A DNA stretch of 25,598 nt, taken from the NCBI GenBank assembly GCA_002861585.1, contig PJQJ01000032.1, positions 10,951 through 36,548 of the forward strand, read 5' to 3'. The stretch's first letter is position 1; each line of letters begins with the position of its first letter. The notes under the pieces are model-generated. The model worked only from the letters and a program-made list of their open reading frames with translations, was not told where the DNA came from and made no database searches. This document shows positions 7,003 to 9,098 of the stretch, piece after piece. The translations under genes and the position numbers were made by a program. The DNA comes from Candidatus Saccharimonadota bacterium. GTDB taxonomy: Bacteria; Patescibacteriota; Saccharimonadia; Saccharimonadales; Saccharimonadaceae.

Positions 7003-7263
7003 TTACGCGTTGCTCTTCTTTTTGTCGCGGCGCATCTTGATGAATGCAGCAGCAGAACCGACAATCATAACTGCACCCAAGGCAACAGGGATCATAACGT
7101 CAAAACCAGTGTTTGCAAGTGATCCATTTGTTGTTGGCTCTTGTGGTGCTGGTTGTGTCTGCTGAGTTGTAGCATCACCATACACTTCAGAGCTGTAGGC
7201 ACCGCCACCATACGATGCATCAACCTGTCCAACGAGGTTGAAGTAACTGATGTTTATTTTCAT
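7003..7263 (-). CDS. Small surface peptide with LAxTG (sortase-like) sorting signal
   Basis: 86 aa with YGGGAYSSEVYG, a Thr/Gln/Pro linker, then LANTG + hydrophobic helix (VMIPVALGAVMIVGSAAAFI) + basic tail KMRRDKKK. AAGGA upstream and a terminator downstream. Confidence 0.75.
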   Translation of the reverse strand: MKINISYFNLVGQVDASYGGGAYSSEVYGDATTQQTQPAPQEPTTNGSLANTGFDVMIPVALGAVMIVGSAAAFIKMRRDKKKSNA

Positions 7264-7270
7264 AATTCTA

Positions 7271-7321
7271 TTGCGTCCTTACCTTAAGCAGTATAGTATA
7301 CTTATAGGCAGAATAAAGCAA
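7271..7321. promoter_or_regulatory. Overlapping divergent sigma70 promoters (tatAC and LAxTG peptide)
   Basis: Plus: TTGCGT(7271-76)-17-TAGTAT(7294-99). Minus: TTGCTT(7321-16)-17-TACTAT(7298-93). Palindrome AGTATACT at 7295-7302. Confidence 0.55.
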
Positions 7322-7337
7322 GTGAGGGAATAAAAGT

Positions 7338-7538
7338 ATGTTCGATAATGTTGCTGAGATTTTGGGTTTAGGTACTCCTGAACTTATCATCATCTTGGTT
7401 ATTGTACTCTTGCTGTTCGGAAGCAAAAAGCTACCTGAACTAGCAAAGAGCGTAGGTTCTTCTGTAAAAGAACTCCGCAAGGGAATAAGCGACGAGGTTA
7501 AAAGTGAAAAATCCTCGGACGCAAACAATCGATCCTAG
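7338..7538 (+). CDS. tatA: Twin-arginine translocase subunit TatA/E
   Basis: GLGTPELIIILVIVLLLFGSKKLPELAKSVGSSVKELRKG is the canonical TatA TM plus amphipathic helix; 66 aa. Confidence 0.95.
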   Translation: MFDNVAEILGLGTPELIIILVIVLLLFGSKKLPELAKSVGSSVKELRKGISDEVKSEKSSDANNRS

Positions 7539-8739
7539 CGACGCGAATCAAAACACGCCGGCCCTACCAACTTTCATGGATCATGTCTATGAGCTGAGGG
7601 GTCGGCTGTTTTGGATAGCGGTCATATTCTTGGTGGGCTCTGCTGCAGCGTACCCTTATTATCATGCAATTATTGATTTTCTGGTCGCGCCACTCGGTAA
7701 TCAGAAATTGTACTACTTAACACCGGTTGGTGGGTTTAGTTTTATCATCAAGGTCTGTACCTATGTTGGTATGGTCCTGACGCTGCCTGCAGCTATCTAT
7801 CATCTTTACAAGTACTTACAGCCTGTCGTCGGACAGGTGAAGGGAAGAGTGGTGCTTGGGTATGTCCTCTTCTCGCTCTTGCTTGCAATTGGTGGAACGG
7901 CTTTTGCCTACTATGTCATCCTGCCTGCTGCGCTTCACTTTTTGACTAATTTTGACGTTAAAGATGTTACGGCGATGTTGACCGTCGACTCGTACCTATC
8001 CTTTGTTATCACCTACCTTCTTGGTGCTGCCGTCTTATTTCAGCTGCCAATTGTGCTGCTCATTATTAATGCCATCACACCCCTTTCGCCAAAGGGGCTC
8101 ATGAAGTATCAGCGCTATGTACTGCTTGGAGCGTTTGTTGCCGCAGCTATTATATCGCCAACACCTGACATTACAAACCAAACCCTCTTGGCAGTGCCAA
8201 TTATTATTATGTACCAGCTCGGTATTATCCTTATCTGGATTCGCAATGCCTTTAAAAAGAGTCCCAAGAAGGCAGCTACGCCAGCCCTGCAGCATGGGGT
8301 TGCTAAAAAGGGCAGGGGAAAACAGGCAACAATCTTTGAGATTAAGCAACCACCTTTTAAAGTTCATGTCACTGGGCCACCACTACCTGCACGCATACCA
8401 AAACAACCACAGTTAGGAATGAGTGTGCAACCAGCGGTGATATCAAAACCAGCTCCTTTGTATACTAAGCCGGTGGGACGTGCGAATCACGGTACAGTGG
8501 CTCCCGCGATTGTTATGAAGCCACAACCAGTTGCTGTGCAGGTTGGAGCTTCTGCTGCTACAGTAAAAGCTCAGCCCATGACGCGTACCAACTTATATGG
8601 TCGACCGCAGCCGGCACCACCGCAGCGAGCAATGCGTTCGTCATATGTCTCTCCAGCTATGCGTCAAGCTCAAATTGGACGTGTCTCTTCACGAAGTGTA
8701 GACGGTTTAATGCCGTCACGACAGATTGTAATATCGTAA
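7504..8739 (+). CDS. tatC: Twin-arginine translocase subunit TatC with long C-terminal extension
   Basis: FMDHVYELRGRL, six TM segments, FQLPIV, AAIISPTPD motif. GTG start with GAGGT 5 nt upstream, overlapping tatA by 35 nt. Confidence 0.92.
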   Translation: MKNPRTQTIDPSDANQNTPALPTFMDHVYELRGRLFWIAVIFLVGSAAAYPYYHAIIDFLVAPLGNQKLYYLTPVGGFSFIIKVCTYVGMVLTLPAAIYHLYKYLQPVVGQVKGRVVLGYVLFSLLLAIGGTAFAYYVILPAALHFLTNFDVKDVTAMLTVDSYLSFVITYLLGAAVLFQLPIVLLIINAITPLSPKGLMKYQRYVLLGAFVAAAIISPTPDITNQTLLAVPIIIMYQLGIILIWIRNAFKKSPKKAATPALQHGVAKKGRGKQATIFEIKQPPFKVHVTGPPLPARIPKQPQLGMSVQPAVISKPAPLYTKPVGRANHGTVAPAIVMKPQPVAVQVGASAATVKAQPMTRTNLYGRPQPAPPQRAMRSSYVSPAMRQAQIGRVSSRSVDGLMPSRQIVIS

Positions 8740-8849
8740 GTATAATCTAGAAAAATTTATTGACTTATTGCTGTAAAAGCATAATAATTATGAGTACAAA
8801 GTCTCTAAAAATAAAAATCAAAAAATAAAACAAAAACAATAAGGAGTTT

Positions 8850-9098
8850 ATGATGCAACTCAACCTCGACGGAATCTTGCAAAAAGAGATGGATCGAAAA
8901 GATTTTCTAAAGCACCTTGCAATTGGTGCGGTAGCTGCCACGGGTATCGGCACGATTATCAAAGCAGTCGCCCCTCAGTCTGGCTTTAACATTGGATCAC
9001 AGGCTGGTTCAACACAGAACCAAGTTTTTGGTTACGGCGGTTCAGTGTACGGTGGTGGTCAAGAACGCCAAGTTCACACTACCGCTCGTCAATCATAA
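8850..9098 (+). CDS. Small protein with Tat-like signal (DRKDFLK) and YGGSVYGG motif
   Basis: AAGGAG SD at 8841-46 (spacing favours the second ATG at 8853). DRKDFLK is followed by a Gly/Ala-rich hydrophobic segment. Lies directly after tatC; TTGACT at 8760-65 upstream. Confidence 0.8.
   Translation: MMQLNLDGILQKEMDRKDFLKHLAIGAVAATGIGTIIKAVAPQSGFNIGSQAGSTQNQVFGYGGSVYGGGQERQVHTTARQS

Follow-up and report, generated by a model that had tools for sequence, protein, structure and literature searches.

Tat-associated mini-proteins, Tyr/Gly tags and phage-fibre-like proteins linked to TatAC in Saccharimonadales: a probable surface-display system

Signal-less folded proteins are thought to be carried through the Tat (twin-arginine translocation) machinery by a partner that bears a Tat signal and is encoded by an adjacent gene, as in the B. 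cepacia flavin adenine dinucleotide (FAD)-glucose dehydrogenase with its gamma subunit (PMC6719666), PaoABC (PMC4273604) and HybO/HybC. Proteins with a tail anchor, among them sortase substrates and partners that hitch-hike without a signal, are also integrated by Tat (PMC10924467). How a signal is read by TatC has been described by cryo-electron microscopy of E. coli TatBC with a bound signal (2026): E15 and F94 are in contact with the first arginine, E103 and Y100 with the second, and L9, H12, L13 and F94 make up a pocket for the phenylalanine (PMC13323110). Here we compare these systems with a locus at positions 7003-9098 of a 25,598-nucleotide (nt) stretch of DNA (the window) from a Candidatus Saccharimonadota bacterium (GCA_002861585.1, contig PJQJ01000032.1, positions 10,951 to 36,548). 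The interval holds four genes: tatA, tatC, a gene for a Tat-associated mini-protein (TAP), and a divergent gene for a mini sortase substrate that combines a Tyr/Gly tag (the YG tag) with the sorting motif LANTG (the LANTG peptide). From comparative sequence analysis, the window probably encodes the core of a system for surface display, specific to one lineage of Patescibacteria and made up of TatA, TatC, TAP and the wall-anchored YG-tag peptide. The likeliest Tat cargo would be a family of phage-fibre-like proteins, the RLPWG proteins, whose distribution matches that of TatC exactly and whose genes often stand directly after that of TAP.

The association of these families was analysed in 61 relatives and in 301 genomes sampled phylum-wide. 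TatC was found in 26 of the relatives and TAP-like genes in 25, with both present in 24. The N-terminal module of the RLPWG proteins occurred in all 26 TatC-positive relatives (1-6 copies each) and in none of the 35 TatC-negative genomes. The phylum sample, which included other classes, gave nested sets of 15 genomes with TatC, 11 with RLPWG and 10 with TAP, and neither RLPWG nor TAP was found in its 286 TatC-negative genomes. The distance between TAP and tatC was ~3.5 kb or less in 22 of 26 loci, with TAP mostly immediately downstream, a YG-tag gene abutted tatA or tatC in 18 of 26, and an RLPWG gene followed within ~200 nt 3' of 12 of the 35 TAP-family matches. One relative (G031) retains a truncated TatC and a 23-amino-acid (aa) RLPWG remnant and has no TAP and no YG tag, a state that looks like all parts decaying together, with loss in progress. 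Judged by gene content and order, TatAC, TAP, the YG-tag proteins and the RLPWG fibres are inherited and arranged together, and a functional link between the four families is very likely. A degenerate TAP-like open reading frame (ORF) without the invariant arginine was also seen in a genome that has neither TatC nor RLPWG (G054; locus L111, C2:41590-41748).

Both Tat components of the window are clear family members. TatA (7338..7538, + strand) matched PF02416 with 58.9 bits (cut-off 21) and TIGR01411 with 67.5 bits (cut-off 53.9), placing it in the TatA/E family, whose members have an N-terminal transmembrane helix and then an amphipathic one. TatC matched PF00902 with 175.2 bits (cut-off 25.1) and TIGR00945 with 159.2 bits (cut-off 132.7), covering profile positions 1-208 of 208 and with them the six-helix core. 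Its gene (7504..8739, + strand; core residues 26-245) is the longest ORF from a GTG start and overlaps the end of tatA. The assembly (0.89 Mb, 80% complete, parts masked with N) contains one TatA/B/E-family gene and one TatC gene.

In an alignment to TatCs of solved structure, the window TatC retains H27 and E30 at the positions of E. coli H12 and E15, within the N-terminal signal-binding motif HVYELR (7582..7599, + strand), and Y104 supplies the aromatic residue at F94. The signal-binding motif of this region was kept in 25 of 25 intact TatCs of relatives. The loop between transmembrane helices 2 and 3 (YLQPVVGQVKGR, 7813..7848, + strand) has Gly at Y100 and Lys at E103 alongside the Tyr at F94, so that the canonical five-residue receptor (H12, E15, F94, Y100, E103) is incomplete and, by this alignment, the site binding the second arginine is lost. 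Glu at the E103 position was found in none of the 25 intact TatCs of the order, which likewise lack Y100; it is kept in seven TatCs from other Patescibacteria classes. Relative to canonical recognition (PMC13323110), therefore, H12, E15 and an aromatic at F94 are shared on the TatC side and Arg-x-x-Phe-Leu on the TAP side, whereas Y100 and E103 are replaced (Gly/Lys) and the second signal arginine is not conserved. The window TatC also ends in a basic tail of 166 aa (8242-8739) rich in Pro, Ala, Val, Lys and Gln. Basic tails rich in Pro, Ala and Arg, 63-141 aa long, were also seen on 18 of 24 full-length TatCs of relatives, which makes the tail a lineage trait, possibly a cytoplasmic docking arm.

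The TAP of the window (8850..9098, + strand, 82 aa) consists of a Tat-type signal and a 40-aa Gly/Ser/Gln tail that ends in a YG heptad. Its signal has the n-region motif D-R-K-D-F-L-K (8892..8912, + strand) and a Gly/Ala/Thr-rich h-region (8916..8960, + strand) followed by K-A-V-A-P, and the C-terminal motif is GYGGSVYGG (9030..9056, + strand). The protein matched the NCBIfam model NF038009 with 81.8 bits (E 3e-23) over model positions 1-69 of 70, resembling that family in size, full-length match and tat linkage but scoring below its curated cut-off of 100, which was reached by none of 201 sampled genomes of the class, the window TAP having the top score. The model is named "twin-arginine translocation system-associated protein", a name that gives no function, and the database homologs of TAP are labelled "hypothetical protein" in Candidatus Saccharimonadales metagenome-assembled genomes. 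Across 21 tat-linked TAPs, which follow the consensus LLxKEMDRKxFLxH ... GYGSSxYGG, residues R16, F19, G32, Y67 and G68 are invariant and G61 and Y62 nearly so. The position after the invariant arginine is K in 12, R in five, L in two, and Q and A in one each. The window signal, with one arginine in place of two, scored 15.3 bits against the twin-arginine signal model TIGR01409 (S/T-R-R-x-F-L-K; cut-off 16.7). The h-region has a Kyte-Doolittle mean of 2.04 (family mean 2.11), as against 2.65 for the neighbouring Sec signals, and a Lys or Arg stands at its end in 17 of the 21 TAPs. This low hydrophobicity and the terminal basic residue, a combination expected to avoid Sec, are by sequence typical of Tat signals. 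Members of the family are 56-92 aa long, with 15-40 unstructured residues after the signal; in the window TAP a proline follows AVA, and most TAPs of relatives have no A-x-A site.

The strongest argument for TAP being a real ligand of TatC comes from two genomes of another class (G166 and G187), in which TatC retains E103 and TAP reads S-R-R-D-F-L-K, with the C-terminal YG motif also conserved. The TAP signal and the second-arginine site of TatC thus appear to vary together, as far as these few lineages go, and TAP is very probably bound by TatC. A TatB-like identity for TAP was considered and rejected because the layout of the protein is wrong for it. No other convincing Tat-consensus substrate was found in the window genome. 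Four proteins combine R-R with an N-terminal hydrophobic stretch and have no F-L (C22:4650-6002, C26:33227-35599, C25:4726-5187 and C29:34717-35598, all in the window genome, G000); these look Sec-type, though they may be further Tat substrates.

The RLPWG proteins, whose genes follow TAP or a TAP paralog in many loci, begin with M-x-R-L-P-x-P-G-x-D-D-G-x-W-G-x-x-L-N-x-Y-L. In all 46 distinct RLPWG ORFs this module stands at the start codon, without a signal peptide. The remainder of these proteins matched phage tail-fibre and minor-tail PHROGs, BppL_N, PTR, DUF5907 and collagen repeats. Collagen-like proteins of Streptomyces phages were found to share the 35-aa N-module, the identity being 65% over 34 aa. 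In Streptomyces phage BRock (KX925554.1, 100817-100918) it opens a collagen-repeat protein encoded among tRNA genes, with the annotated start upstream of the motif. When the full-length RLPWG protein of the window genome was searched against phages with tblastn, only repeat regions were matched, and the N-module match required a more typical member of the family. The window genome has a single RLPWG gene (407 aa, contig C26), directly after a gene for a secreted YG-tag protein. That cluster (locus L108, C26:61000-67500; positions are those of L108) encodes, in order, a protein with a signal and a C-terminal helix (1468-2358, 296 aa), the secreted YG-tag protein (2388-3029, 213 aa), the RLPWG fibre (3096-4319) and a protein of 511 aa (4327-5862). 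Pfam, PHROGs and NCBIfam gave no match for the RLPWG protein, the 213-aa YG protein or their neighbours.

A class of TAP paralogs, of which the window genome has no copy, carries a canonical T-R-R-E-F-L-Q signal and a GFGSRKFG tail. In five of five cases the paralog gene adjoins an RLPWG gene of 233-237 aa with a gap of 0-7 nt, for example at L058:1744-1962 (- strand) beside the RLPWG gene at L058:1033-1740 (- strand); the other cases are L029, L031, L059 and L060. At L029 and L031 a signal-bearing protein of ~350 aa precedes the paralog.

The LANTG peptide (7003..7263, - strand, 86 aa) is built of a leader, a Tyr/Gly tag of the form Y-x4-Y-x4-Y, a Thr/Gln/Pro linker and a cell-wall sorting signal. 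Its tag, YGGGAYSSEVYG (7212..7177, - strand), has three tyrosines at a spacing of 5 and is a Cys-less variant. The sorting signal (7015..7119, - strand) comprises the LANTG pentapeptide (7119..7105), a hydrophobic helix of 22 residues (7104..7039) and the basic tail KMRRDKKK (7038..7015), and scored 16.7 bits against the LPXTG_anchor model TIGR01167 (cut-off 15.9). The 17-aa leader before the tag reaches a maximal 10-aa Kyte-Doolittle mean of 1.03, and the N-terminal signal peptide usual for a sortase substrate is absent from this peptide and from its eight homologs. These homologs, signal-less mini-peptides of 70-93 aa, adjoin tatA in eight relatives and carry LANTG, LVDTG, LSNTG, LAGTG, LAYTG, LVNTG and similar motifs. 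Tat-dependent tail-anchored sortase substrates of Actinobacteria (Gallego-Parrilla et al. 2024, PMC10924467) combine Tat export, a C-terminal anchor helix and sortase attachment in a comparable way, but each brings along a globular domain and a twin-arginine signal at its N-terminus. Neither is present in the LANTG peptide, which has only a 12-residue Tyr/Gly tag. With LAXTG/class E substrates such as chaplins (PMC5148588; NF058583) the peptide shares Ala at motif position 2, the helix, the basic tail and a very small passenger; in contrast, it scored 19.5 bits against NF058583 (cut-off 65), and the motif varies among relatives. Three sortase genes lie elsewhere in the window genome, one of class F (185.7 bits, cut-off 166) and the others unclassified. 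None is of class E, the best class E score being 40.5 bits against a cut-off of 160, and a LAXTG/class E pairing was rejected on this ground. The LAxTG signal read in the original prediction is therefore left without a class E sortase to match it.

The YG tag itself extends well beyond the signal-less peptides. In 20 proteins, Y4 and Y9 of the tag are invariant and its consensus is Y-G-x-G-x-Y-G-x-x-x-Y; two Cys are usually present. Matches to a hidden Markov model of the motif were found in 21 of the 61 relatives, all of them TatC-positive, and in none of the 35 TatC-negative genomes; the model was built from the same genomes that were searched, and weight attaches to the absences alone. No signal is present in nine tat-adjacent YG peptides, whose leaders of 10-17 aa are not hydrophobic. 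The same position in nine further loci is taken by a larger protein in which a Sec-type signal is immediately followed by the tag, so that nine of the 18 tat-adjacent YG products have a Sec-type signal of their own. With half of the family equipped in this way, the tie of the tag to Tat is not merely an export need of the signal-less members. Two of the tat-adjacent proteins with signal and tag are histidine kinases with HATPase_c and MASE1-like regions (L050:2575-4479 and L032:5724-7406, both - strand), which suggests that the tag may be able to feed a sensor too. A peptide-pheromone reading prompted by these kinases is unlikely, because the C-terminal motif of TAP is nearly invariant across families and classes and is not strain-specific.

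The original prediction, made from the window alone, had described two small ORFs with YG motifs, one with a Tat-like N-terminal signal and the other with a LAxTG-transmembrane anchor, as products of a dedicated Tat module that displays or assembles such peptides. The ORFs and all these parts were found where it had placed them. The shared Tyr-Gly motif proved real in that it is conserved in homologs of both peptides (the 21 TAPs and the 20 YG-tag proteins), and the linkage of both to tat in relatives was borne out at the frequencies given above. A dedicated module is plausible, being conserved and Tat-linked in a genome whose scan gave no other convincing substrate. What the earlier interpretation missed was the RLPWG partner, and as a whole it is supported in part.

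Around the genes of the locus, an RBS-like AAGGA (RBS, ribosome-binding site) lies ~13 nt upstream of the LANTG-peptide gene, and AAGGAG, a strong RBS, stands just 5' of the TAP ATG. A promoter-like site, TTGACT-17-AATAAT (8760..8788, + strand; a consensus match only), precedes TAP, and a terminator-like hairpin with a T-run (9105..9146, + strand; a pattern match only) follows it. With these predicted signals TAP, which starts 111 nt after tatC, reads as a separate unit downstream of it. The next gene (9169-9912) is guanylate-kinase-like, scoring under the equivalog cut-off of TIGR03263 (116 bits, cut-off 160). The same gene stands 3' of TAP in several relatives of the family (L034, L042, L048), before hrcA-grpE.

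The following mechanism could draw these parts together. TatC would recognise TAP through R-x-x-F-L, the TAP signal having relaxed to R-K alongside the loss of Y100 and E103 from TatC. Given the proline after AVA in the window TAP and the lack of an A-x-A site in most relatives, TAP would not be cleaved and would remain in the membrane as an N-in/C-out signal anchor, its GYGxxxYGG tail outside. That tail would hold RLPWG fibres, already folded and probably trimeric, by their conserved 35-aa N-module, and the fibres would hitch-hike through Tat. Outside the cell, the YG heptad on the sortase-anchored LANTG peptide and on the secreted YG protein whose gene adjoins that of the fibre would dock the fibres to the wall, and YG tags on membrane-anchored proteins would be docks as well. 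That TAP serves the fibres as a detachable Tat signal or anchor, the YG peptides being docks, seems to us a serious possibility with a little under an even chance of being right. We judge the export of fibres on TAP, taken by itself, in the same way, as nearly but not quite evenly balanced; a docking role for the YG tags, taken by itself, is more doubtful. A fuller version is unlikely, though worth stating: Y-G-x-x-x-Y-G would be a portable docking tag in a hand-over relay, in which the fibre N-module binds the tag of TAP and the folded fibre is exported and passed on outside. In such a relay TAP would be a free-standing "single-arginine" Tat signal matched to a TatC without a second-arginine site. 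The receiving tags would be those of sortase-anchored peptides, secreted proteins and sensor kinases, and ultra-small epibiotic bacteria would mount, and perhaps sense, actinophage-derived host-binding fibres.

Fibre export on TAP together with docking by YG tags, if correct, would account for a folded-protein exporter being kept in a cofactor-poor genome without another consensus substrate, for signal-less fibres, for a motif common to carrier and anchors, and for Sec-exported YG proteins being confined to Tat-positive genomes. Its precedents are the Tat hitch-hiker pairs and the Tat-dependent tail-anchored sortase substrates. Known hitch-hiker carriers are folded subunits, as in the glucose dehydrogenase gamma subunit of 168 aa with its 121-aa five-helix mature domain, whereas TAP offers 15-40 unstructured residues; and known cargo consists of cofactor enzymes, whereas the proposed cargo here would be phage-fibre-like proteins. 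The usual mark of a hitch-hiker, a signal-less partner encoded with its carrier, is seen here as a genomic association of RLPWG with TatC and TAP only.

Several observations weigh against fibre export. The sole RLPWG gene of the window genome lies on another contig than the tat locus, and ~55-60 of 73 RLPWG genes are not adjacent to a TAP or YG-tag gene. In one relative (G055; L045, C4) tatC is followed directly by RLPWG, and a YG-tag gene is present with no detectable TAP. An extracellular location of the RLPWG proteins would follow from phage-fibre homology only. TAP scores below the cut-offs of NF038009 and TIGR01409, its covariation with the receptor comes from just two E103-retaining lineages, and in model bacteria R-K, R-L, R-Q and R-A would make poor Tat signals. 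Nor is stable binding of a cargo obvious for the tail of TAP, which is short and probably disordered. The relatives also share ancestry, so that the co-occurrences are not independent events, and our counts ignore kinship. A complex prediction with three copies of RLPWG residues 1-110, LANTG-peptide residues 1-53 and TAP residues 40-82 scored 0.00 and weighs neither way on binding.

Chance could be invoked for the small ORFs or their shared motif, given that both peptides are short and compositionally biased and that a profile-profile comparison placed the two motifs in register over 13 columns only (P ~1e-3, probability 22%). Yet YG[GSA][GSA]xY occurs in the LANTG peptide and TAP alone among 5,506 six-frame ORFs of the genome, composition-preserving shuffles of the LANTG peptide and of TAP produced the heptad at rates of only 0.25% and 0.055%, respectively (0.0025 and 0.00055), the genes come with RBS-like, promoter-like and terminator-like signals, and the conservation of both peptide families, including invariant residues in the motif, reaches across bacterial families and classes. 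Chance is effectively refuted by this conservation and keeps next to no probability. Each peptide is a member of a conserved family in which a Y-G-x-x-x-Y-G heptad is kept, and on these figures the sharing is not accidental; we treat the two motifs as one motif type and not as proven homologs. Substrate-dedicated TatAC modules encoded beside their substrate are known in Firmicutes, B. subtilis TatAdCd-PhoD being an example, and on that precedent TAP might be no more than a dedicated substrate of Tat that is displayed at the surface on a membrane anchor. The YG proteins would then be surface proteins independent of it, the RLPWG fibres would use another route and be co-inherited only, and the Tyr/Gly motifs would assemble or cross-link outside the cell, for instance by aromatic-ladder or dityrosine-type contacts. 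The extracytoplasmic position of both motifs near membrane or wall fits this, as does the distance of most RLPWG genes from TAP. A disordered tail of ~40 aa, however, gives a folded-protein exporter no purpose, the signal-less RLPWG proteins track TatC perfectly in two samples, and TAP paralogs are translationally coupled to RLPWG genes with no YG-tag partner nearby. We therefore consider a merely dedicated substrate unlikely.

Hitch-hiking of the LANTG peptide, which the original prediction had raised, would have TAP pair through its YG tail with that peptide in the cytoplasm and carry it through Tat, the helix serving as a Tat-dependent tail anchor before the peptide is attached to the wall by sortase. 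The nine signal-less tat-adjacent YG peptides, the common register of the two motifs and the known ability of Tat to integrate tail-anchored proteins, sortase substrates and hitch-hiking partners without a signal among them (PMC10924467), speak for it. The nine Sec-signal YG proteins, two of them histidine kinases, are nevertheless just as restricted to TatC-positive genomes, which argues that the link is not simply a need for export, and the exact co-occurrence of RLPWG with TatC is left unexplained. Moreover, YidC or Sec could insert an N-tail of 50 residues that has no signal peptide. With nine of the 18 tat-adjacent YG proteins bearing their own Sec signal and just as tied to Tat, carriage of the LANTG peptide is less parsimonious than fibre export, and we regard it as improbable. 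Finally, TAP might be an accessory subunit or regulator, a signal-like peptide occupying the binding site of TatC in a TatB-less TatAC. Its near-strict co-occurrence with tatC, its place after that gene, the unusually conserved region before its arginine (LLQKEM) and the NCBIfam name, which says merely that it is associated with the Tat system, would suit such a role. Its layout is nonetheless that of a signal peptide and not the transmembrane and amphipathic helices of TatA/B, its paralogs lie away from tat and are coupled to RLPWG genes, G055 has TatC and RLPWG without it, and the conserved C-terminal YG heptad would go unexplained, which makes an accessory role very improbable.

Part of this picture is already known: an association of TAP with Tat is implicit in the name of the NCBIfam model, and hitch-hiker export is a known kind of mechanism. 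In the literature on Saccharibacteria Tat, LAXTG and Tat hitch-hiking of tail fibres we found no description of TAP or the YG tag, nor of a link to RLPWG or a loss of E103. New here are the YG heptad that stands in register in TAP, sortase peptides, secreted proteins and kinases and is confined to Tat-positive genomes; the argument drawn from the half of the YG family with Sec signals; and the covariation of the Y100/E103 site of TatC with the TAP signal. Few Patescibacteria have Tat (15 of 301 sampled genomes), and its presence in fermentative, cofactor-poor cells calls for an explanation. If fibre export on TAP is true, the main reason for these bacteria to keep Tat would be the export of phage-like fibres with the help of a detachable mini signal, which would be a new type of hitch-hiker export, and in TatC the system would provide a receptor naturally re-tuned to a signal with one arginine. 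It would also give roles to three families now annotated as hypothetical, and TatA, TatC, TAP and one fibre would make a compact heterologous test system. For the biology of Saccharimonadales, the fibres, whose N-module is shared with Streptomyces phages, would be a concrete candidate for the surface apparatus through which these bacteria make contact with their hosts.

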